DNA from: Pseudogymnoascus verrucosus
Taxonomy: Eukaryota
Reading direction: 5' to 3' (one strand)
Length of the DNA stretch: 64,000 bases
Assembly (NCBI GenBank): GCA_001662655.1
Contig: KV460206.1
The notes under the pieces were generated by a model. It was not told the origin of the DNA and made no database searches. It worked only from the letters and a program-made list of their open reading frames with translations. How positions within the stretch are numbered: the stretch's first letter is position 1; every line of letters starts with the position of its first letter. The translations under genes and the position numbers were made by a program. Positions 28,408 through 44,690 of this stretch are shown here, in pieces.

Positions 28408-30771
28408 TCAGCTAATATCGACCGTACGGGTATCATCACCTTCCTCATCCGCGCCCCCAAGCTCGTGCTCTACCTCCTCCACCACGAACCCCTCGTAGTC
28501 CTCGAGGTTCTTCTGCACGTGCACCTTGAATTTGATGATATCATTGAGCATGCGCTCAACCTCCGTGTGCAGTTCCTCCCTCAAGGCATTCGCGCGGAGA
28601 GTAAGCTGTTCATACCTATGACCACCGTTAGCATTCCCTCTAGAAACTCAAAGGGGCAGTAAAACCACATACTCAATATTAGTATTCATCTCCCTCTGCT
28701 CCATCAACTGCACCGACTCCGTCAAACCCCCCCTCATCTTCGCCAACTCCTTCTCCATCTTCTCAATCTGCGTATCCGACGCAATCTTCTGCGTCGTCGT
28801 CACCTCCTTCGTCTTCTCAAACTCCTCCTGCGCCGCCCGCACCCTATGCTCCAGCGCGTCCACCTCGCTGCGCTTATCCTCAATCGCCTCCTTGATCCCG
28901 TCCAGCAGATCGTGATTCTTCATCATCGCCTCCACCACCGCGCTGCGCCGGTCCGAGACCTCCTTCTTGAGCGCCAGGAACGCGCCGCGCGCCTGGCCGC
29001 GCAGGTCGAGGCTGAGGATCTGGTGGGGTTGGTAGCCGCTCACGGGGTCGGCGAGGAGGCGGTCGCTTTCGGAGTTGGCGCTGTTGCCCATCTGGGAGCT
29101 GGAGAATTGCGGGCCCTCGTTGACGAGGATCTGGAGTTCGTAGTTCTTGCCCTTCGCGTTGGGGGCTGTGGAGGGGATGAGGCCGATTTGGTAGCCTAGG
29201 CTGTTATAGTTTTCCACCAGGCGCTCGAGCTCGTCGAGTTTTCGGCTGGCTTCGAACTCTTTCTCGTTGACTTTCTTCTTTGCATCTTCCAGTCGTGATG
29301 CCGTGCCTTCGATGCCCTTCTGGAGGCGCTCGCGCTCGGAAGTCATGCGGTCGATGTCTTGCATGCTGATGCCTTGGTCGTCGACGGACTTTTGGAGGTT
29401 CATGCGCTCCTCCTCCGCGTCGTTGAGCTCCGTCATCGCCTTCTTGATCTCGTCCTGTAGGAACTGGATGCGCGTCTCGTACCTCTCGCACTTCTGCGCC
29501 ATCTTCTCGTCGTAGCCCTCGAACTTGACTCGGTCCTCCTGCAGGATCTTGAAGTGGTTGTCGAGACTGTTGATGTCGGGCGTCGACTTCTCCACCTCCT
29601 CGATCTCGAGGCGGAGACGCTCGTTCTCGGCTTCGAGGATCTTCATCTCTTCGAGGTACTTGGAGTTGGCGTTCTCGAACTGGTGGGCCATGTTCTCGAC
29701 GTGAGGCGCTAGGACGCGCTCCTGGTCGTCGTCATCGGCGTCCTCGTCCATCTGGAGCCACTCCGAGTACGCGCCGCGCAGGAAGTCGAAGATGATACGG
29801 TCACCGCTAACATCGACACCTGCCTCAAGACATGCATCGTCGTAGTGGTTCGCCGCATACCCATCGAGCATCTGCGCAAGCTGCATCATCCAGTGCAGCA
29901 ATCCGAGGAAGGTACTCCAATTCTGCCCCCCCACCGCCGCAATCTGACTCTTCGTAATGCTCTTCTCAAACGGATACCTCAACTGCTTCAAGATCGGCGG
30001 GACCTCCTGATCAATATTCTTCAGAAACCTATAACTCGGATCAATCCGATGATACAGCCACTGAAACATGAAATTGAAATCCTTCTGCGTCGGCGACCGA
30101 ATCGTGTTCTGCGAGAGCATATGCTTCATCTCCATCTCAAAATTATAATTCGCCATATAATCCAACAACTCCTGCCCAATCTTCGTCTGATACGCCCTAT
30201 CCTTCAACGGCCTCGGATCCCTCGGCACCCCCGCCGGCGCCGGCGCCTGCTGGAAGAAACTCTGATGCGCGCCCCCCGGCCCGCTGCTCGACGCGCGCGA
30301 CCTGTAAATGCTGCTGCGCCTCTCATTCGCCTCCTGCGACGGCCTCGACCCCGTCGCCGCGATTCCTCCCGGCGCGAAACTCTTGCGCCCTCCTCCGCTG
30401 GCGTTCTGGAATGACGTCCGCTTTACGGACGATAGGCCCATGTCGGCGAGGTTGGTACCGGAGGAGGAGCGCTGGAATTGAGGCTGGTTTGGGCGCGAGG
30501 GCGCGAGGGAGGCGCGCGAGCCGGAGATGGACCGGGACTGGTTGGCGGTGAAGGCGCCGGGGCCGGATATGGAGTTGGAGCGCTTCATGGCGGAGGCGGG
30601 CTGGGGGATGTTGGAGTTGTAGTTGATGCCGCCGAGGGTCTGGTTGTGCGCGCAGAGTCAGTGGGCTATTTTTTTTTGGCGGGAGGAGGGGGGGACATGG
30701 CCCTGGGGGGGTGTTTGTTTACTTACTTCTCGGGGCCGGCGCACGCTGAATATGCCGGTGTCTTGCGACAT
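28408..30771 (-). CDS. NDC80: Kinetochore protein Ndc80/HEC1
   Basis: [31 protein letters not shown] and [12 protein letters not shown] motifs plus a long coiled coil. Introns 30640-30726 and 28616-28672. Confidence 0.96.
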
Positions 30772-32557: not shown

Positions 32558-33064
32558 GGGTTTGGCTGTAATATCACGGAGGGAAGCGGGGAGGAAGAGA
32601 GTGGTTTGCATGGGACGGCGCTGGGGATAACGTGAGAGCTATTTGATTATTGTATTTATATGATCTATAGGATGGCAAATGTTTGTTCGAAATTTACTTG
32701 ATGGTGGGGTTGTATGTTGCGGCTATGTGAACCTTGCTATTTGGAATTGGGTGAAATCACATGTAATATAAGTATGTGTTATAGGGTGTTCAAACAATAT
32801 CTTATGCAGCTTTGACTCGAAACACAAGAGTAAGGTCCCTTTCAATATACACGTGCTTGCTGTAGTACCAATTACCCCAAAGTTTCTCCAAATACGACGG
32901 TTTCGAGTGATCGGCTGTGAACCCCTACAGCACTTATTCGGCACTAAAACGGGGCGATCGCGTGTGTGGCGCATCGCGACTTACCTCGGCGCCACGGGCT
33001 GTGGGTCTCCTGATAGCCTTTGGACCTTGTAGCTGCCCAGAAATTTGGCGGGGATAACCTTACC

Positions 33065-34687
33065 ATGGCGGATCCGGCCCACACTCGCCCTAAGGCAGGG
33101 GACAAAAGGGCCTCGAGCCCCAGATTCCCTCGCAGAAACAGCATCATCGACGATATCACCTCCGGAACTCAAATTGGCGGTTCCCCATCCGCTCTCTCCC
33201 CCCAACCACCTAACAACGCGCCGCGCAATCGCCCCGCCGCCGCAATGGATTGGTCGCAACCTCTCCCCATTATCAAGGCCCTCGCGCCCAAGGTCCCAAT
33301 GATAGGCAAGACGGCCCTGATGCACTCCCTCGGCCTGTCTGAGACCTCGAAATACTGGGACCTCCGCACCGCAGTTACCATCAACGTGATCCGCTCCTTC
33401 GTCTTCCCTCCCGAACCCACCTCAGTCGGGAAATCCCAGCACATCTCCCTCCGCGACCCAGGCGTAAAAGGAAAAGTCTGGATCGCCAATGTCTCCCTCC
33501 CTTTCACCCCCGACGACGACGATGTCCGCCAGGCCATCTTCGGCGCCATTGATCACCTCGCCGGCGCGCCGCAGGGCGACCTCTACACTGCCCCCGAGTT
33601 GGCTGAGATAACCGCAGAATGGACAGGCTACCGCGCCGGCGCAACATCCTCCACTCCTCCCCTCGACGCCTCAGACGCAGACAAGTACGCCGCAATGATG
33701 AAAGAAGTCGTCTCCCCAACCACAGTCCTCTACCTCCACGGCGGCGCATACTACCTCATGGACCCCGCGACGCACCGCCCCACCACCGCGCGCCTCGCAA
33801 AACACACAACCGGCCGCGTCCTCTCCATCCGCTACCGTCTCGCGCCCCAACACCCTTTTCCCGCGCCCCTAATCGATGCCCTAGTCGCCTACCTCACCCT
33901 CCTCTATCCACCCCCCGGCGCCCTCCACACGGCCGTCGCACCAGAACACATAGTCCTCTCCGGCGACTCCGCGGGCGGAAACCTGGCAACCTCGCTCCTC
34001 CTCCTTCTCCTCACCCTACAGCGCCAGTCGCGCACCGTGCTCTGGGGTGGGTTTCCCCGCTCTGTCCCGCTGCCGGCGGGGACGGCGCTGGTGAGCCCGT
34101 GGATGGATATCACGGGGTCGTCGCCCAGTTGTGCCGATTACGCGCATTTTGACTATCTCCCCGGGCGCACCGCGTATCCGAATGGGATGGAATACGCGCC
34201 GGATGCGATATGGCCTGTTACACCGGCACGGACGGCGCTGCATGTTGATGATGCGCTGCTACTGCATCCGCTTGTGTCGCCGTTGGCGGCGAAGGAGGAG
34301 CTGTGGACGGGGGCGCCGCCGGTGTGGATGGTGACGGGGTGGGAGTTGTTGAGTGATGAGGATAGGGCTGTTGCGGGGCGGATGGCGGGGGCAGGGGTGA
34401 AGGTTAGGTATTTGGAGTTTGAGGCTATGCCGCATTGTTTTGCGATGGTGGTAGAGGGGAGTGCGGTGGCGAGGAAGTGTATTAGGGAGTGGGCGGGGTG
34501 GATGAAGAAGGTTGTGGAGGCGCCGGGGAGTGTGGGGGTTGGGGGGACGGTGGTGGGGTTTAAGAAGTTGGAGGAGAAGAGGGTGGATGTTAAGGGGTTG
34601 GATGAGGGGTGGGAGGTTACGATGGGGAGGATGAAGGAGAGGTTTAAGAAGAATGAGGAGAGGAAGGCGGCGGCGGCGAAGTTGTAA
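33065..34687 (+). CDS. Alpha/beta hydrolase, HSL/GDXG esterase family, C-terminal PTS1 (-AKL)
   Basis: LYLHGGAY, YRLAPQHPFPA, GDSAGG nucleophile elbow and MPHCF. Alternative start at 33245. Confidence 0.92.
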   Translation: MADPAHTRPKAGDKRASSPRFPRRNSIIDDITSGTQIGGSPSALSPQPPNNAPRNRPAAAMDWSQPLPIIKALAPKVPMIGKTALMHSLGLSETSKYWDLRTAVTINVIRSFVFPPEPTSVGKSQHISLRDPGVKGKVWIANVSLPFTPDDDDVRQAIFGAIDHLAGAPQGDLYTAPELAEITAEWTGYRAGATSSTPPLDASDADKYAAMMKEVVSPTTVLYLHGGAYYLMDPATHRPTTARLAKHTTGRVLSIRYRLAPQHPFPAPLIDALVAYLTLLYPPPGALHTAVAPEHIVLSGDSAGGNLATSLLLLLLTLQRQSRTVLWGGFPRSVPLPAGTALVSPWMDITGSSPSCADYAHFDYLPGRTAYPNGMEYAPDAIWPVTPARTALHVDDALLLHPLVSPLAAKEELWTGAPPVWMVTGWELLSDEDRAVAGRMAGAGVKVRYLEFEAMPHCFAMVVEGSAVARKCIREWAGWMKKVVEAPGSVGVGGTVVGFKKLEEKRVDVKGLDEGWEVTMGRMKERFKKNEERKAAAAKL

Positions 34688-34933: not shown

Positions 34934-36277
34934 TTAATACTCCTTACTCTCCCCAACATCCGAAACATCAAACACCCCCACCTCCGGCATCCCCTGCCCC
35001 CTCAACACCTCCTTCAACCTCTTCGGCGGCGCCCCCCCATCCTCCTCCGTCAAAACCCACGTCCCCCAATGCACCCCCAACGCCCTCTTACACCCCGTAT
35101 CCTTCAGAATCTCCACCGCATCCGCCGGATCCGCATGCATACTACTAAACAGATACCTCGGGTCATACGCCCCAATAGGAATCAACCCAAGATCAAACGG
35201 CCCCCTCAGCTTCCCAATATCCTTAAACGCAGGGCAACGCGGCAGGTCGGCATACGGCGCGCTATAGTCGTCCACAGTAGGGGGCAGCTTGGGAACAGTA
35301 CGGTATCCAGTGTCCCCGCCGAACCACACAGACTTCCCACCCGACTTAATCGCCCACGACGCCCACAGCGTTTTCGCCTGATCAAACGGCGTGCGCGCGC
35401 TGGTATGCTGGCAGGGTAAACACGAGATGCGCGCAGTGATCGGACCCCCCGCCGTTTGCGCCGCAGGGGCGCCCGCAGCAGCAGCAGTGACTTCCCACTC
35501 CACGCCCTCCGCCGCGGTAGGCGAGAGCGTAACATCGATTTCCTGCCACCAATCCATCTCAACGACACTCTGGATCCCCGCATCCCTAAACCACGATTCC
35601 AAGCCCAGCGGCACGGCGAACAGCGCCTTTGGATGCAGTTTCGCTAGCTCCATCACGGAGGGGTAGGAAAGGTGGTCGTAGTGCGAGTGGCTGATCACGA
35701 CCACGTCGACGGCTGGGAGGTCGCCCAGGCCGCAGGGGGTAGGCGTGTACCGCTTTGGACCTGGGAAGCCGGCGGGGGAGCAGCGGTCCTCGAAGACGGG
35801 GTCGAGGAGGACGCGCAGCCCGGAGGGGAACTCGAGGTACATGCATGCGTGGCCGAGCCAGGTTGCACGGAGAGAGGTAGAAGCGGTGCGGGAGGGGAGG
35901 AAGGTGGGGGTTTGCACGGTGAGTGGCGGGGTGAGGACAGGGGTGTTTGCTATGCCGGAGATGCGGCGCCTGGGGGGTGTTAGTGAGACTGTTTGTTAAG
36001 CTGTGAGGGGGGGTGCGTACCAGATGATGTTGGAGAGTATTTGGATGGGGGCGAGAGGCTTCCAGCTCTCCCAGGGGTTGATGAAGCCATTGCCGCTCTT
36101 GTTGTGGTGGGTTTTGTTCTTCGCGTCCGTGGGCGCGTCGGCGGCTTGGATGGGGACGGAGGCGGAGACCGTGTAGGCGGCCAAGGCGACGCCGGCGAGG
36201 GTGCCGGAGGATGCTGCTGTCATTGTTGCGGGGGTTGGGCGGCGGAGGTGGAAGAGAGTGCGGAAGAGACGACGCAT
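34934..36277 (-). CDS. NAPE-specific phospholipase D / Fmp30-like metallo-beta-lactamase fold protein
   Basis: GFINPW, ATWLGHA, SHSHYDHL, FGGDTGY, IPIGAYDPR and GVHWGTW motifs. Intron 35970-36020. Arg-rich N-terminus resembles a mitochondrial presequence. Confidence 0.92.
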
Positions 36278-37604
36278 GGGGGGAGGTGGAAGGCGAATGT
36301 GGGAATCGGGGGGGAAATTGGGAGGTGGAAGGTATATATAAAATGCAGACGACGAGGCTATAAAAGGTACTTGTAGGCAGATGCAGGCGACGAGGCTGGG
36401 TACGTACGTATGTAGGTCGTAAGTCCGTAGGGTCGGGATCGGATCTTACCTGAGATCTTTCCTGTCCGAGAGCTGAAGGATGACTGCAGGGTAAATATGA
36501 GAGAAAAGAGGAGATAAGGAATTAACGTTAAATCCGTTTCTCCGGCCGCCACCATGTCTCGGCATCCGATGTCCCATGCATGCTTGTTTTGTTTACAGTT
36601 CAGATTCGGTTCTCAAGTTAAGACCATACATGAAACTTTATTCTCATACTGTCTCTTAATGTTTTTTTATAAGCATTGAGCTATTCTTCTAGCTCAAACT
36701 AAGTTAAGCTTATAATAAATAGCCTCTCCCCTGATACGAGGATTAGTGACTAAACAACACAAAGGTTCCGATGAGAGCCTTGCGCAAGGCTGAGCGAGCC
36801 TGTATCGCCTTGTCACACCAAGTATCGCGAGCCTGAGTGGTCGTTGATAACGACACTGCCAAAATAGAGGATGTGGTATAAGATAGAGACCAAGTCGTCC
36901 ACCTATGCAAGCCAGACGAATGATCAAGACGCTCATAGAGATCACTATTGCTTCACGGCACGCCAACTATTCGTATGTTGTCCTTCCTATCTATATGTAC
37001 AGTACGGTACAGTACCTTTATAGTACAGTGTGGGGAAGGTGGCGATTTCAGCGACGGTAACATCAAGCTACGACAGGAAGAGTAGTAACAGTGACAGCAA
37101 ACGGCAACAGTGAGGGTGATAGCAAGTAGCAACGGTGACAGCAACGATGACAGCCAGCACCACCGATACCGGCAACGTTGAGCTCGACTAATGCCAGAGT
37201 GGTCGTGCCAGATGTTCGACAGCGTCACCGATATTTTGTTTTCCGGCCCCAGTTAGTCGGAGGACTCGAACTTCATTTTAAGCTGTGTGCTTCCTGCATG
37301 AAAGCTCGGTATATATATATTTCATATCCCAATTTTTTATATTTATTTTATTTCATAGCTTCTATGATATTTCAAGCAATGACGGGTCGGGAGGTCTATC
37401 TATCTTTCGGAGTGGGCCCCCCGCCGACGACAACTCGATTAACGCTAGGAAACTTCCGATAAGCCGGCGCATTTAAATGTGCGGGGAGAGCACTTTGCAT
37501 TCTTAATTCTCCAATTGTTACTATATTGCTCTCTTAGGATCATTCCCTTAGACTACTTCATTATACGACTCACATACCACATCTGCAACGAATCCCCCTC
37601 TACA

Positions 37605-38447
37605 ATGGGTAACAACAAGAAGCTCAGCGCCTATTATGCGCCTACGGGCGGCTTGCCGCCACAGACACAGATCCTCACCGACCGTGCTATGTTCACCGAA
37701 GCCTATGCGGTAATTCCAAAGGGCACATTCAGCGACATCGTGACGAGTTTCCTGCCGTTCTGGGATAAGACGAGGTTGTGGGTGATTGCCCGTCCGTTAT
37801 CGGGCTTCGCCGAAACATTCTCGCAATACATCATGGAGGTGCAACCCGGGGGCGGCAGCGATCGCGGTGAAACGGATGACAGTGCGCAGGGGGTGGTGTT
37901 TGTCGTCAAGGGCGAAGTGACAATCACCTTAGGATCAGAGAAACACACACTTTCCGAGGGCGGCTATGCCTACCTACCACCGAAGAGCGGGTGGTCCCTC
38001 CGTAACACTGGTGCAACCACCGCCTCTTTCCATTGGATTCGCAAGGCCTACGAATCTGTGGAGGGAATCGATCAACCTACGCCGCTTTTCCTTAACGAAA
38101 AGGATGTTCCACCTACATATATGCCAAACACCAACAATGCTTGGGCTACCACACGATTTGTCGACCCGAACGATCTGCGCCACGACATGCATGTTACCAT
38201 TGTTACCTTTGAGCCCGGGGGAGTCATCCCATTTGCGGAAACCCATGTCATGGAGCACGGCCTTTACGTTTTAGAGGGTAAAGCTGTGTACAGGCTCAAT
38301 CAGGACTGGGTGGAGGTGGAAGCTGGCGACTTCATGTGGTTGCGTGCCTTCTGCCCTCAGGCCTGTTACGCCGGCGGCCCTGGGAAATTCCGTTACCTGC
38401 TCTACAAGGACGTAAACCGCCAGATGAAGCTATCAGCGAAATTGTAA
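37605..38447 (+). CDS. (S)-ureidoglycine aminohydrolase, bicupin, bacterial type (AllE/YlbA-like), intronless, ends -AKL
   Basis: YYAPTGGLPPQT..RAMFTEAYAVIPKG, WVIARPLSGFAETFSQY, ETHVMEHGLYVLEGK, FCPQAC and FRYLLYKDVNR match the ureidoglycine aminohydrolase family as I know it. Confidence 0.9.
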   Translation: MGNNKKLSAYYAPTGGLPPQTQILTDRAMFTEAYAVIPKGTFSDIVTSFLPFWDKTRLWVIARPLSGFAETFSQYIMEVQPGGGSDRGETDDSAQGVVFVVKGEVTITLGSEKHTLSEGGYAYLPPKSGWSLRNTGATTASFHWIRKAYESVEGIDQPTPLFLNEKDVPPTYMPNTNNAWATTRFVDPNDLRHDMHVTIVTFEPGGVIPFAETHVMEHGLYVLEGKAVYRLNQDWVEVEAGDFMWLRAFCPQACYAGGPGKFRYLLYKDVNRQMKLSAKL

Positions 38448-39126
38448 TGGACAAACGCTTTGTCTTCGGTCAATTGTCGACTTTTTAAACACGCCACCCG
38501 CCTAAAAAGGATAATGGATGCAGGCTGGACAGATGATCCATGCTTCTCCATCATTCAATCTCCCCGATCATTAGAATTCGCCATCTCTAAGGCCTTGCTA
38601 GGCCAATGGTAGACTCTACTGTTAATGTGTTAGCCTCGGACGGTGCGTTTTACCAGATGCACTTGTGGAGGTAATGAACCCTAGATTCTTTTATATATTT
38701 ATCTTATATATTGTATAACATATTTAACACAAACTATTTCACGCAAGCTATTTCTCACTACAAATTAAGTATTTCGAAACGCAATGTCAGCCGTATCATT
38801 CTGATAATCTTTAAAACTATCCTTTACTGTAGTATAATAATCCCTAGCCCTTCATTCACCACCTACGAATCCAAACCGAACATTCTGATCTACAGCATCG
38901 CCGCCATGTGCTGGTGTTGGGTTTGCGGCGAGACCTGCGATTATCATGACCAGCATCTTACGTATGCACCTCGATTCACGCTAAGCGATTAAGGCAATAG
39001 TATTAACCGCCAACGGCACGGCTTGAGCTCCGAGCCACTTTAAATAGGTATATATATCATCCATCGTCTCAACAAATCTTCTCACGTAACAAAGCCCTTG
39101 ATACCTATTTATTATCCATAGCCATC

Positions 39127-39342
39127 ATGGTTTCAGCCTCGTGGACCAGCTTGCTCGCTTCCAACGAATTGCAGCGCTCCTCACACATAGTGTCTGTAGT
39201 GAACGGAAGTGCGTATATATTCGGAGGAGATCCGCGAGGATGGTTTGATGCAGACGTAGTTGGCCAGTCTGCAATTTTGGTGTCTGGTGGTTTGGGAGAG
39301 GAGAACAATCGGATTGATGATGCTTGGCTGCCCCAATTCTAA
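39127..39342 (+). pseudogene. Internally deleted kelch-repeat protein gene (71-aa remnant)
   Basis: N-terminal RSSHIVSVVNGSAYIFGG is fused in frame to C-terminal-type PRGWFDADVV..ILVSGGLGEENNRIDDAWL. The middle blades are missing. Confidence 0.7.
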
Positions 39343-39497
39343 GTGTATGAAATGCATTCTTAGATGAGAACTTTACAAGTCCTTTTCGTTCTTGAAAGAA
39401 TAGATCTTCTCAACTCCGATTTAATATTACTGCTCGCTGACATAATGTGGAATGTATGATTCATGAACTTGACAGTCTAAATGTTTTACATACCGAT

Positions 39498-41261
39498 CTA
39501 GATATCACTACTAGATGCGATCCTTCGGAGTCCCTGCTCCCTTGAGCGCTGCTTCCCCTTCTGGGAACGCACCATCTCCATCCACTTCGACAAATGCACC
39601 AGATGACCACGGCGTGAATAAACAAAGACAGTATACAATACGCTCGCAGCCACTATGGCGATGACACTAAGAAGCGTTGGCCATTTAAATTGTTCTGGCC
39701 GTGAGAAGATGATGGTAGAGGCGTAAGAGCAGAGCTCAAACACATTTTGCCACGAAGCTTCAACGGAAGAGAAGGATCCCCGATGAGCAGCTTCGACGTC
39801 CTACATGCAATGGATTGATCAGCTTGGGCGACTTGACACGACGGGGCGAATGACTGACCTCTTGGATAATTATCTGTGCACAGAGGTCGAAGCCTCTAAG
39901 ACCCATGCGGCTGAGGATTGTGCCAACCACAAGGCCGGAAGCAGACATGTTAGGCTGGTCGGAGAACGCCCAGAAGACCGATGTGCCAGCCACCAAGCAC
40001 ACTATCTGCCAATTAACCAGCCAGAGGCCGGCGCGTACAGGCCCGATTCTCCCCATCAGCCAAGGTGCAATCCACGTAGCTAGAACCTCAATGACTACAG
40101 AGAGGGTCCTGGCTATGCCTACCTGGGTAGAATTGTAACCGGCTGAGAGCAAATATGTGACCATCTGCCCTGCGAACGAGAGCACGGTTAAGTACAATAA
40201 AGCGCTGGCGAATGACGGTAGGAAAGCTGGATGATAAAAGTAGAGACTGAAATCATATACACTCTTCTGTATGACTTTGCGGACGTTGCGCCAGCTGTGT
40301 ACAAAGCGACCCCTATGTTCTGTTCTGCCAAGCGATTCGTCTCGTGGTTTTGTCTTAGGTTGTTGTAATTCTGGAACCTCGTAATAGACCTTCGAATGGC
40401 AGCTTTAGTATAACGTCTAATAAGGAGAATATGCCGGTTGAAGGACTTACTTGGGCTATTGCAAAGTATTCTACAGCGACTGACGCCACATTCATTCCTA
40501 AACTAACTAATATTGCTGCCTCTGTTGACATGCCATCTATAAGAGCTATAAATAGGGGCCCTATGAGTTTACAAGTCAAGTCGATCCGTCTCATTTGTGC
40601 ATTAATCACTAGGCTAGCAGTCAGTCAAAATATAATAAGACAGTACTCACCGACTAACCTCGTAATGCCGCTTGATCCTCTCCAGCGACAACGACAACCC
40701 AGTCTCTCTCAACGGACACCATGTTCATAATGGCGCAGAGTTTCTCAGCACAGGCTAGGACCGCCAGGAGCACCAACAGACCTGCTTCCGCGCCATGGGC
40801 ACGCGGCAAACCGATGGCGAGGATATAGAACGCAACGCACGATCCTGCTACAGTGAGACGCTGCATCACTATCTCAGGCAAAATCATGCAGCAATTAGCG
40901 CAATCCACTATGGAAATTAGGGACACATATTACCAATTGATAGCCTCACGACTTGAAGACGATTGCCTGTATCAATATACTGTCCAATGGCCGGGGAAAA
41001 GAGAATGGCCGTCGCTCCCCGAGCCAGAGCATAGACCGACATGGGCAGTAGGGTTCCAGGAAAGATGGAGGCTAGATAGAGCGCGGCCCCAAACTCGAAG
41101 ACTCGAGAATTCCATGTTGATAGGAAATGAGATATGTACAGCCGGTTAGTGACTCTTGCGGGCACCTGGCTGTCCCTTCTTTCGTCCCCCGTGCTGCCGT
41201 CTGGCACAACGCTTTCGGCATGGTCGGTAGGGGTAAGTAGAGGACTGCGTTCTTCGTCCAT
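39498..41261 (-). CDS. Ferroportin-like (SLC40/FPN1/IREG) metal exporter, 5 exons
   Basis: RLYISHFLSTWNSRVFEFG, SVERDWVV, INAQMRRIDLTCKLIGP and LSRMGLRGFDLCAQ motifs. Exons 40934-41261, 40659-40868, 40451-40608, 39859-40389 and 39498-39800 join in frame. Confidence 0.93.
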
Positions 41262-41949
41262 CGGCAGATAGGATCCCTCTGGTGAGGATCCTACAAACGG
41301 TACCGTTTTCGACTAGCCTGACGTTTGTGCAGATCTGCTTGCTCACTCATGGTTGAAGGAAGCGGGTCGAGGTCATTTGCGTGCACGTGACTTACACTTA
41401 TTTTTAAAGTCGCTATAAATATTATAAGTGGTCTAAAACTATATTACAGTAGTACGTAGATTACATTTATACTGGCATTATAATATTACAGGCGCTAAAA
41501 CATGGGAGATCGTAGCTTGGGCGACGGCGGCGTGGGATTGCGCGCCAGCCATAGATCTGTAAATCTCTATGATGCCATTCTCACCGATGGATCCGCGACG
41601 ATTTAGCTATGGCGGAGCTCTGGTTCCGCCCTGCATGTAGTATCACGGAAAAGAACAAAAGCACAAGTCCTAAGCCTTCCCCATTTAGTCGTCCCCGCAC
41701 AACATCTCCCCCGCAGCTAGGACGGGATTTGAGAATCGCCGAGCCACTCCGTGTTCACGACAACAGTGATATGCGGATCACTGTGCTGTAAGTTGAAATA
41801 TGTAGAGATATAAGGTTGCGTGTATGCTGGCATCGCGCAACCAGTATTGTTAACTTGTTTTTGTAAACTAAAGTGTCCCTGGCACCCGTCATACGTAAAG
41901 GAAATTAGCTGGGCAATTTTCAAATACTCGACGAAGCAGTTGCGCCAAC

Positions 41950-44690
41950 ATGGCTCTTTTCTCCTCAGAGGTGCTTTCGTCAGGATGGGAATTCAAGCTC
42001 ACTGAAGAGAGCCAGCTGGACTCGTGGCTCCCCGTCGCCAAGGTACCAACGGTGGTCCATCTCGATCTCCTAGACAATAAGAAGTATGATTTGACGCTTA
42101 CAACGTGACATAAACTAATGTAATGTAGAATACTCGATCCTTCCCTAGATATGAACGAGCTGCAGACGCACTGGGTTGGCGAAAAGTCATGGACATACCG
42201 ATGCCAGTTCACCGTCGGCTCGAAGGTAGAAGGAACAAAAACCGTTTTGGTATTTGAGGGCCTAGACACATTTGCGACAGTGCGACTAAATGACACGGAA
42301 ATCCTAAAATCTGAGAACATGTTCATAGCATACCATGTTGATGTCACGGCGACGATAGCTTTTAATAGCCTTAACACCATCGAAATCGACTTCGAGTCTG
42401 CACTTCTCCGTGCCCGCGAAATCGGGAAAGAACATCCCGAGCATCGCTTCATTGGACATCAAACCGAGCCGGAACGGATTGCCGTTCGAAAAACTCAGTG
42501 CCATTGGGGGTGGGATTGGGGCCCGAAGTTGATGACCGCGGGACCATGGAGACCAGTCCGACTGGAAACATACGCTAGCAAGATTGAGAACCTTTGGCTT
42601 GATAGTACCTTGGATTCCGACCTCAATGCGTGTAGAGGGAACATTTTCGCGCATGTAGATGGAGAGGCTGGCGCGAAAGTACTGTTCACGCTGTCGTTGG
42701 AAGGCACAACGGTATTCGAAGTGGAGTGTACGCCCAGTTCTAAAGGGGCCATACAAACGCCCTTTGTTCTCCAAAAGCCATCCTTGTGGTATCCGCACGG
42801 CTATGGAGCTCAAACTCGGTATGTTTTGGAAGCATCACTTGTCATTAATGGTGTTGTTCTACATCGTGTCGAGCAAAAGATTGGTTTTCGCCGTGCCGAA
42901 TTGATACAAGAAAAAGACACGAATGGGAAGTCGTTCTACTTCCGGATCAATGGAATTGACGTTTTTGCAGGAGGATCATGTTGGATTCCTGCTGACAATT
43001 TCACGCCGCGAATTTCTTCCGACAGGTATAGAGAGTGGCTGACGTTGATGGTAGAGGGGAATCAAATCATGACTCGGTGAGCAATACCAAGCACAATGCA
43101 GAAGTAGCCGCTGACAGACCGCAGGATATGGGGAGGAGGTATCTTTGAAGAAGAGGTATTCTACGACGTCTGTGACGAGCTTGGGATTTTAGTATGGCAG
43201 GACTTTCTCTTTGCCTGCGGCTCCTACCCGACCTACCCCTCACTACTCGAGTCCATCGAAGCAGAAGCACGATCAAATGTACGCCGGTTGCGCCACCACC
43301 CCTCAGTAATAATTTATGCCGGAGGAAATGAAGATTATCAAATTCAACAGACCTACAACCTCGACTATGACTATGACGGCGACAAAGATCCCGAGTCGTG
43401 GCTGAAAAGCTCGTTCCCGTCGCGGTATATCTTTGAGTATCTCTTACCAAACACACTGGCGGAAGAGGACTCGCAGGCAATTTACCATCCGAGCAGCCCA
43501 TGGGGTGATGGAAAGCACACCACAGATCCAACTGTTGGCGATATCCATCAATGGGACGGTAAGCAACGTGGCTGCACCGCGTAAACCCCCAGATACTAAC
43601 GTCTCTCCAGTTTGGAACGGCCTCATGAAACCATACCAGGACTTTCCCATCATGGGGGGACGTTTCAACAGTGAATTCGGCATGGAGGGATATCCTCATA
43701 TGAGCACTATCAAGGCCTTCATCAGCGACGAGAGTGAAATGCATGCGCAATCCCTAACAATGGACTTTCATAACAAGGCGAATTTCCACGAAAGGCGCCT
43801 CGCAACATATGTGCACGAGAATTTCCGGGTATCTTCAGCTGACTTCAAGGTAAGTCGATATGCAACTCCTGTGAATCGGAATGTAACCGGCTCTATAGTA
43901 CTGGGTCTACTTGACGCAACTTCTACAATCTGAGGCTATGCACTATGCCTACACCAGGTGGCGACGCGAATGGGGGACGCCTGGCGAGCGTCGGTGTGGG
44001 GGTGCCCTCGTTTGGCAACTCAACGACTGCTGGCCAACCATCTCCTGGGCAGTTGTTGATTACTTCTTAGTCAAAAAGCCGGCATTCTACGCGATTCAGC
44101 GGGCCCTTAGACCAGTATCAATAGCTGTCGCTCGCACCCACAATGAGTGGACAAAAGGGCATGTTGCGCCTGATCCCACGTCGAAGTACGATGTATGGAT
44201 TGCAAGCAGCAACGTCTCGGGCGTAAGGACCGCGAAAGTCGAACTGAGGTTTATATCCATCAAGACAGGTCTTGATGTCGTGGATCCGCAAACAGAAGAC
44301 GTGGAAATCAAACCTAATGGCACAACCACAGTACGAGAGAATGTCACCATCGACAACCCACCTACACTCGAAGCATTCGTCTTGTCTGCGACACTGTCTA
44401 TTGAGGGAGAAGTTATAGCTCGCGACGCCGACTGGCCGCAGCCATTCAAATACTTGTCTTTCAGAGAAGACCGAGGGTTGACGATTACGCTGTCTGAGTC
44501 GCGAGACACTATTTCAATCACCGCTAAGAAGCCGGTGAAGGGGCTGGTATTCGCAGAGCGGGTGGGACTGAGCTTCAGTGAAAATGGCCTCGACATCCTC
44601 CCTGGACACGAGTACAACATTCATGTGGGCGGCTTAAAGGAAGACGAGGAGCTGGAATGGGTGTTCCTCGGCGCCAGTGAAAGTCATTAA
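41950..44690 (+). CDS. Glycoside hydrolase family 2 beta-mannosidase (intracellular, no signal peptide)
   Basis: LVFEGLDTFA, HWGWDWGP, GSCWIPAD, GGNED, SEFGMEGYP and WQLNDCWP motifs. Four introns. Confidence 0.95.

Follow-up and report, generated by a model that had tools for sequence, protein, structure and literature searches.

A Brucellaceae-derived UGlyAH2-type gene with a putative peroxisomal targeting signal in the fungus Pseudogymnoascus verrucosus

UGlyAH2, a bifunctional allantoicase/(S)-ureidoglycine aminohydrolase, was reportedly described by Puggioni et al. in 2014, and an alternative allantoicase of bacterial origin in some Eurotiales is said to have been reported in the same year by Galanopoulou et al. 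The present analysis concerns a gene of this kind in a 64,000-nucleotide stretch of Pseudogymnoascus verrucosus DNA (GenBank assembly GCA_001662655.1, contig KV460206.1), hereafter called the window; its coordinates and those of other features are given in Table 1. Puggioni et al. (2014) is the reference given for UGlyAH2 in the available excerpts of PMC13751858 and PMC5611559. According to the former, UGlyAH2 proteins free urea from allantoate and ammonium from ureidoglycine, UGlyAH2 and allantoate amidohydrolase (AAH) are mutually exclusive, and the main role of UGlyAH2 is thought to be that of an allantoicase (citing Puggioni et al., 2014); canonical (S)-ureidoglycine aminohydrolase (UGlyAH) acts after AAH and does not degrade allantoate. 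According to the excerpts of the latter, a review of 2014, the alternative enzyme of bacterial origin takes the place of the classical allantoicase in some Eurotiales. The transfer into Eurotiales is thereby already in print, and what is added here is limited to the donor family, a holder among the Leotiomycetes, the history of the peroxisomal targeting signal type 1 (PTS1), and a hint of a hop from fungus to fungus.

The protein encoded in the window resembles the UGlyAH2 of Hyphomicrobiales (NF040771) in length and bicupin architecture, with 84-86% identity to the Brucellaceae members compared, and the sequences agree almost letter for letter in the C-terminal cupin that holds the E/H/H/Q site. 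The fungal copy differs in that it is solitary, outside a purine operon, and in that it carries a PTS1-type C-terminal extension found in no bacterial copy examined. With the alternative allantoicase of Eurotiales it has the enzyme family and the horizontal origin in common, but its holder, Pseudogymnoascus (Leotiomycetes), stands outside the Eurotiales. Canonical UGlyAH (Arabidopsis, 4e2q/4e2s; E. coli YlbA/AllE, 1rc6) shares the fold family and the conserved metal-site positions, but is distant (E 2e-28 for 4e2q, 2.9e-31 for 1rc6). The plant UGlyAH is located in the endoplasmic reticulum, not in the peroxisome. The classical allantoicase (PF03561; yeast DAL2, A. nidulans AaX) would perform the same presumed net reaction, from allantoate to ureidoglycolate and urea, but belongs to an unrelated fold family and represents a convergent replacement.

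A related entry, Event3771, stands in supplementary file 3 of PMC11708051, which catalogues prokaryote-derived transfers across 829 fungal genomes (2024). The event comprises at least three fungal genes with best matches to (S)-ureidoglycine aminohydrolase or bifunctional allantoicase of Mesorhizobium and Halomonas (76.6-78.4%). In contrast to the present analysis, Event3771 is a list entry only; the terms purine, allantoin, peroxisom and nitrogen do not occur in the main text of PMC11708051. Beyond PMC5611559 and PMC11708051, the literature search returned nothing on a fungal UGlyAH transfer or on a PTS1 of this enzyme. A paper on planthopper symbionts reports the enzyme as absent, and it is not mentioned in PMC10120013.

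The reading frame is open throughout and the contigs of four public sequencing runs are colinear with it, with no joint inside the open reading frame (ORF); the gene is therefore intronless. Translation of the ORF gave a protein ending in ...KDVNRQMKLSAKL (-SAKL). A Pfam scan found Cupin_2 in two stretches (E 3.7e-21) and Cupin_3, and the classical allantoicase family PF03561 was not among the matches. The intronless 280-residue bicupin with an -AKL end, as given in a preliminary description made from the letters of the window, was thus borne out by ORF, translation and domain content. Three (S)-ureidoglycine aminohydrolase equivalogs of NCBIfam were passed, namely NF008373 (536.6 bits, cut-off 445) and the other two of the set TIGR03214/NF008373/NF008376 (522.9 bits against 338, and 308 against 200). 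The closest solved structure was PDB 1sq4 (E 2.3e-135, matching residues 8-277). An AlphaFold2 model of the monomer was all-beta, with a mean predicted local distance difference test score (pLDDT) of 81.6 and a predicted template modelling score of 0.81. In an alignment of 50 sequences, conservation reaches 90% or more at E212, H214 and H218, and Q252 is invariant; all four line up with E, H, H and Q of the Arabidopsis enzyme 4e2q. These residues are presumably the Mn ligands, as in the Arabidopsis structure.

For the search for relatives, the best 120 of 8000 scored homologues were listed. Twelve of the 120 rows carried fungal names (Pseudogymnoascus, Penicillium, Metarhizium, Ustilaginoidea, Epichloe and Claviceps; 78-98% identity). 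The named bacterial rows among them were alphaproteobacteria of the Hyphomicrobiales (77-83% identity), mostly labelled 'bifunctional allantoicase/(S)-ureidoglycine aminohydrolase'. Cluster look-ups added further Pseudogymnoascus strains, many Penicillium species, Aspergillus (sp. HF37, A. chevalieri, A. alliaceus, A. sydowii and A. sclerotialis), and also Cordyceps javanica, Sarocladium strictum and several Fusarium species including F. graminearum. Fungal holders were counted only where they aligned, and the clusters at 90% identity also contain unrelated short proteins. Such short members of the 90% clusters of P0002 and P0005 were not accepted as homologues (A. oryzae/flavus rows of 119-148 amino acids and an unrelated 'cytochrome P450' fragment); A. 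oryzae P0472 had no similarity to the query, and being in a cluster is by itself no sign of homology. A search of representatives at 50% identity returned mostly fragments without names and was used for distant rows only. The named fungal holders are patchy and at odds with the species tree, being limited to Pseudogymnoascus, Penicillium, several Hypocreales and a part of Aspergillus.

Bacterial contigs were searched with one genome per species, and 581 of 586 candidate stretches encoded a relative, which marks a family spread through the Proteobacteria. The best matches were Brucella/Ochrobactrum cytisi, gallinifaecis, grignonensis and sp. MYb379 (84-87%). In pairwise comparison the window protein was 84-86% identical to the Brucellaceae proteins compared (B. 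intermedia 85.6%), and the protein of Penicillium brevicompactum was 91.7% identical to that of B. intermedia. At the DNA level, the gene was 79.1% identical to that of Brucella cytisi over 837 nucleotides; the match ran from the ATG to near the stop codon, and the flanks were without similarity. An N-terminal MGN(D/N)K extension is common to the fungi and to B. cytisi, B. intermedia, B. pecoris and CM-21-5.

Trees were consistent with this picture. In a FastTree phylogeny of 206 rows, every named fungus was nested within the Brucellaceae. An IQ-TREE phylogeny of 75 rows placed 39 of 39 bacteria on one side of a branch (support 91/89), with Ochrobactrum CM-21-5 closest to the fungi, followed by B. 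intermedia and B. cytisi. A further careful tree, of 49 rows and with Phyllobacteriaceae as the root, grouped Brucellaceae and fungi at 100/99. By these alignments and trees, the ancestry of the gene is bacterial, from Brucellaceae-like (Ochrobactrum/Brucella) alphaproteobacteria, and filamentous ascomycetes would have received it horizontally from such a donor. The preliminary description had proposed a horizontally acquired gene of proteobacterial or actinobacterial source; the acquisition and the proteobacterial donor stand, and the actinobacterial one does not. The outcome it had named as contrary, a broad vertical spread in fungi together with eukaryotic homologues, did not occur.

The direction of transfer, from bacterium to fungus, was settled by the genomic context, the bacterial copies being part of a conserved operon for purine breakdown. 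A puuE homologue lay within 8 kb of the gene in 45 of 80 bacterial loci. In the Brucellaceae loci the gene followed xdhA/B and a fusion of puuE to the OHCU decarboxylase gene in five of five cases, and a HIU hydrolase gene was present in four of five. The fusion encodes one 487-residue protein, PuuE (allantoinase) joined to OHCU decarboxylase, directly upstream of the UGlyAH2 gene. In the donors, the UGlyAH2 gene would thus have been the last of a conserved operon xdhAB-HIU hydrolase-puuE::OHCU decarboxylase.

The account of the bacterial entry has weak points. Monophyly of the fungi was weak (83/29 in the 49-row tree) and a quick tree of 58 rows divided them into two groups, so that the gene may have entered fungi from bacteria more than once. 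Rooting on the distant row P0122 was unreliable, since its long branch landed in Fusarium at 89/30 in the 75-row tree; the rooting consequently rests on operon context and on the breadth of the family in bacteria. Composition was non-discriminating as a mark of foreign origin: with a GC content of 0.544, and 0.644 at third codon positions (GC3), the gene lies inside the range of its neighbours (GC3 0.51-0.83) and of the donors (0.60-0.76).

The C-terminal tripeptides of fungal and bacterial proteins were compared using the pattern [SAC][KRH][LM]$ for a canonical PTS1. No match was found in the 80 bacterial loci or in 15 named bacterial rows, which end in -KLSR, -KLA, -KLTR or -KLPR, and none in 12 rows of Hypocreales. 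The pattern was matched in two of five Aspergillus rows (one further row has -SRI), in 10 of 16 Penicillium rows (-SRL; the others have -SRP in three, -SRV in one and -LSR in two), and in six of seven Pseudogymnoascus rows (-ARL or -AKL; -SKI in one). The canonical signal is therefore confined to fungal rows, in agreement with the earlier proposal that the gene gained its PTS1 after the transfer. In bacteria, the stop codon follows directly on the Arg codon (CGA TAA/TAG). On the simplest account, addition of one residue to a bacterial -KLSR end would have produced -SRL in a Eurotiales-type lineage; in Pseudogymnoascus, insertion of Ala and exchange of Arg for Lys would then have led from -SRL to -SARL and -SAKL. 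In the monomer model no secondary structure was present past residue 269, and the last block of ten residues had a mean pLDDT of 62. PMC12316961, in its excerpts, counts both AKL (in a human SCP2-Pex5 structure) and SRL-GFP as PTS-1. A canonical signal on a probably flexible tail could be bound by the receptor Pex5, which would import the enzyme into peroxisomes. From the tail comparison, a peroxisomal location appears somewhat more probable than a cytosolic one.

Alternatively, the enzyme would be cytosolic, and -AKL, -ARL and -SRL would be neutral by-products of a drifting tail without import. Three points argue in this direction, the first two of which also weaken the case for targeting. 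First, the last residue varies between close relatives (-SRP in three rows, -SRV, -SRI and -SKI in one row each). Second, two Penicillium and two Aspergillus rows lack the extra residue (-LSR/-LLR). Third, the 12 rows of Hypocreales keep the gene although none has a PTS1. By the first two points, peroxisomal targeting may be under weak selection. In Aspergillus nidulans the classical allantoicase is a cytosolic enzyme, which also fits this alternative. On the other side, SRL, ARL or AKL was kept in 18 of 28 rows of Eurotiales and Pseudogymnoascus, versus none of 95 bacterial rows and loci, both the Ala insertion and the Arg/Lys exchange in Pseudogymnoascus preserved the consensus, and the tail is unstructured in the model. 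A cytosolic enzyme with a drifting tail is considered rather unlikely, and predicted peroxisomal import is preferred.

Independently of this gene, the neighbouring Abhydrolase_3 protein was found to end in -AAKL, likewise of PTS1 type.

Within the fungi, the relationships did not follow the classes. In the 49-row tree, Pseudogymnoascus (100/99) was sister to the Penicillium chrysogenum group (99/97) inside Penicillium (95/95); it was also nested in Penicillium in the trees of 75 and 58 rows. Pseudogymnoascus and the P. chrysogenum group have in common an NRQ motif in place of NRH. Penicillium and Aspergillus orthologues were 80-92% identical to the window protein. In the approximately unbiased (AU) test, uniting six Penicillium-type rows without Pseudogymnoascus cost 16.9 log-likelihood units and was rejected on a p-AU of 0.0138. 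A first AU test with the four named Penicillium rows only (p 0.00015) was discarded as unfair, since it forced out two probable Penicillium rows. A secondary arrival of the Pseudogymnoascus copy from a Penicillium-like fungus is moderately favoured by these comparisons.

A single ancient transfer from bacteria to fungi, followed by vertical descent and many losses, would explain the same distribution if the odd topology were noise in a slowly evolving protein of 280 residues. This would accord with the poorly resolved fungal backbone (the 83/29 fork mentioned above and many open forks in the other trees) and with very short branches. The AU result is also to be read with caution, as the group was chosen after the tree had been seen and includes two rows without species name, probably Penicillium. 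Against a single transfer stand the nesting in Penicillium with starred support in three trees and an identity of 92% to the proteins of P. nalgiovense, P. griseofulvum and P. freii versus 79-85% to those of Hypocreales. In addition, no other Leotiomycete was among the named homologues, whereas a search with the neighbouring NDC80 found many. A single transfer with losses is accordingly judged improbable, and the secondary arrival from a Penicillium-like source is retained as the better account.

Urate oxidase and ureidoglycolate lyase are peroxisomal in Aspergillus. It may tentatively be proposed that the gene moved twice, first between kingdoms and then between classes: a one-codon extension from -SR to -SRL would have moved the splitting of allantoate into the peroxisome, and the gene would later have passed from a Penicillium-like fungus to Pseudogymnoascus, in which the signal would have changed to -ARL/-AKL and been retained. 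This full sequence of events is possible, though it is put forward with less confidence than either of its parts. If true, the gene would have crossed first a kingdom and then a class boundary, with one added residue re-targeting its product to an organelle, and would illustrate that one extra C-terminal residue suffices for a predicted organelle address. The overall explanation, a UGlyAH2 derived from Brucellaceae that gained a PTS1 and reached Pseudogymnoascus secondarily from a Penicillium-like source, is regarded as quite likely the best one.

The assignment to the enzyme subgroup was made with the NCBIfam exception model NF040771 ('bifunctional allantoicase/(S)-ureidoglycine aminohydrolase', UGlyAH2). 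The window protein scored 503.7 bits against a cut-off of 350; together with three other fungal proteins and B. intermedia (511), the range was 500-511 bits. Four of five distant representatives (42-48% identity) missed the cut-off. By profile and relatedness, the window protein belongs to the UGlyAH2 subgroup, and would be a Mn-cupin of purine/ureide catabolism. Judged by homology, it would convert allantoate to (S)-ureidoglycolate and urea, and would also deaminate (S)-ureidoglycine. Since UGlyAH2 hydrolyses allantoate itself, such an enzyme would fill the role of the classical allantoicase without need of AAH. Allantoicase activity in the fungus is accordingly predicted with reasonable, though not high, confidence.

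The preliminary description had placed the enzyme in the AAH route, that is, as a monofunctional (S)-ureidoglycine aminohydrolase downstream of AAH in a urease-independent ureide route of the bacterial and plant type. Two facts are compatible with that assignment, the first of which also tells against the subgroup call: both plain UGlyAH equivalogs (NF008373 and NF008376) outscored the exception model, so that placement in UGlyAH2 depends on the curated cut-off together with relatedness; and UGlyAH2 enzymes retain the aminohydrolase activity (PMC13751858, excerpts). The cut-off of the exception model was nevertheless exceeded by 150 bits and the nearest relatives are named bifunctional allantoicase/UGlyAH. 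In a profile search, AAH (TIGR03176) was over its cut-off in none of five Brucellaceae genomes. Neither was the classical allantoicase PF03561 found in these five; as a positive control, it was found in two of five other genomes (Halopseudomonas and Paraburkholderia). Taken together with the mutual exclusion of UGlyAH2 and AAH and with the substitution for allantoicase in some Eurotiales (excerpts of PMC13751858 and PMC5611559, respectively), these results make the AAH route very unlikely, and this part of the earlier description was abandoned. The pathway is to be corrected to the effect that the fungus need not have the plant/bacterial amidohydrolase route; it would have, maybe additionally, a non-homologous allantoicase. 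The gene may play a part where Pseudogymnoascus of cold soils and caves draws its nitrogen from the purines and ureides of guano or litter.

The gene is integrated among native fungal genes (Table 1). As a control, the neighbouring NDC80 was compared with the databases: Pseudogymnoascus proteins (92-98%) were followed by those of other Leotiomycetes (72-79%) and then of Sordariomycetes, and Eurotiales were not among the 120 NDC80 matches listed. Around 36000-40000, a search for flanking repeats or transposon signatures found short, chance-like repeats only. Assembly contamination, or a transfer from fungus to bacterium, could be suspected from the very high identity across kingdoms (79% for DNA, up to 92% for protein), but is practically excluded by the position on one contig with intron-bearing or typical fungal genes on either side, by seven Pseudogymnoascus rows that hold the gene with a fungus-specific tail, by the end of bacterial DNA similarity at the ORF borders, by the purine operon around the bacterial copies, and by the wide distribution of the family in Proteobacteria (the 581 loci).

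For Pseudogymnoascus sp. 24MN13, the records of UGlyAH2 (P0280) and of NDC80 (P0354) each name a contig 14781 bases long. This is probably the same contig for both genes, in which case the linkage of NDC80 and UGlyAH2 would be conserved.

Contigs of public runs were aligned to the window. In run X1 a whole contig of 1189 nucleotides, from a close relative, matched the region given in Table 1 with 11 letters differing, and in run X2 a contig of 978 nucleotides matched 37659-38636. Two soil metatranscriptomes gave contigs on 38217-38738 (X6) and on 37635-37905 and 37908-38723 (X7). These alignments suggest a discrete transcript of some 1.2 kb that is not spliced, and the gene is intact and probably expressed. 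It counts against this that the RNA nature of X1 and X2 is a guess, and that the contigs show neither RNA strand nor ends, nor prove transcription. Some parts of the surroundings, among them 36400-37425 and 38794-38907, were left uncovered by these runs, to which no meaning is attached. Within the ORF, 24 of the 25 listed differences between X7 and the window fell on third codon positions (47 further differences, over all runs, were not listed); by this pattern of substitution the gene is under purifying selection. The locus may serve as a clean, datable example of a bacterial operon gene turned into a working eukaryotic gene: it stands alone, has no intron, is subject to purifying selection and is probably transcribed.

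Table 1. Features of the UGlyAH2 locus; positions refer to the window unless a bacterial locus is named.
Feature	Position	Strand	Remarks
UGlyAH2-type bicupin coding sequence	37605..38447	+	ATG start, 280 amino acids, stop TAA 38445-38447, intronless
E212, H214, H218 codons	38238..38258	+	motif FAETHVMEH of C-terminal cupin; presumed metal site, with Q252
Q252 codon	38358..38360	+	motif CPQACY; invariant in 50-sequence alignment
Ala-Lys-Leu codons	38436..38444	+	GCG AAA TTG; PTS1-type tripeptide, from sequence
Transcript-sized contig of close relative	37480..38667	+	run X1; about 125 nucleotides upstream and 220 nucleotides downstream of gene
GATAAG site	37458..37463	+	present; HGATAR not enriched
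NDC80	28648-30657	-	neighbour
Abhydrolase_3 protein	33017-34687	+	neighbour
MBL-fold protein	34934-35995	-	neighbour
Ferroportin-like (FPN1) exons	39760-41312	-	neighbour
GH2 beta-mannosidase-like gene	42124-44690	+	neighbour
YggS-like gene			neighbour
Adaptin (AP-2)			neighbour
puuE::OHCU fusion	L001 6428-7888		bacterial locus; same gene in L002, L003, L004, L007

Regulatory motifs were counted in the window and in the promoter region (36522-37604). An AreA-type GATAAG site had been noted at about 37458. The site is present, and in the HGATAR count it appears as CGATAA at 37457, but it is not a more-than-chance one: HGATAR occurred 143 times in the whole window versus 149.3 expected, and seven times in the promoter versus 4.4 in local shuffles, of which 140 in 1000 reached seven. 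The motif TCGG-N6-CCGA, which we take to be of UaY type, was absent from the promoter and occurred twice in the window versus 1.3 expected, once inside the ORF.

Directly after the GATAAG, an overlapping palindrome (CCGGCGCATTTAAAT / ATTTAAATGTGCGGG) was seen at 37464-37485, at the 5' end of the X1 contig (37480); it could be a candidate binding site or start region. A TATA-like run (CGGTATATATATATTTCA) is located at 37307-37324; the covering contig has its 5' end about 170 nucleotides further downstream.

Downstream of the gene, at the joint 39230/39232 (within 39111-39419), contigs of related strains carry about 790 extra letters (X1), and loose ends were seen in X2 and X7. Either the window is without a stretch that its relatives have, or the relatives carry an insertion. 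The frame 39007-39342 (+) around this joint resembles a Kelch-type repeat (..GSAYIFGG..) and may be a gene remnant.

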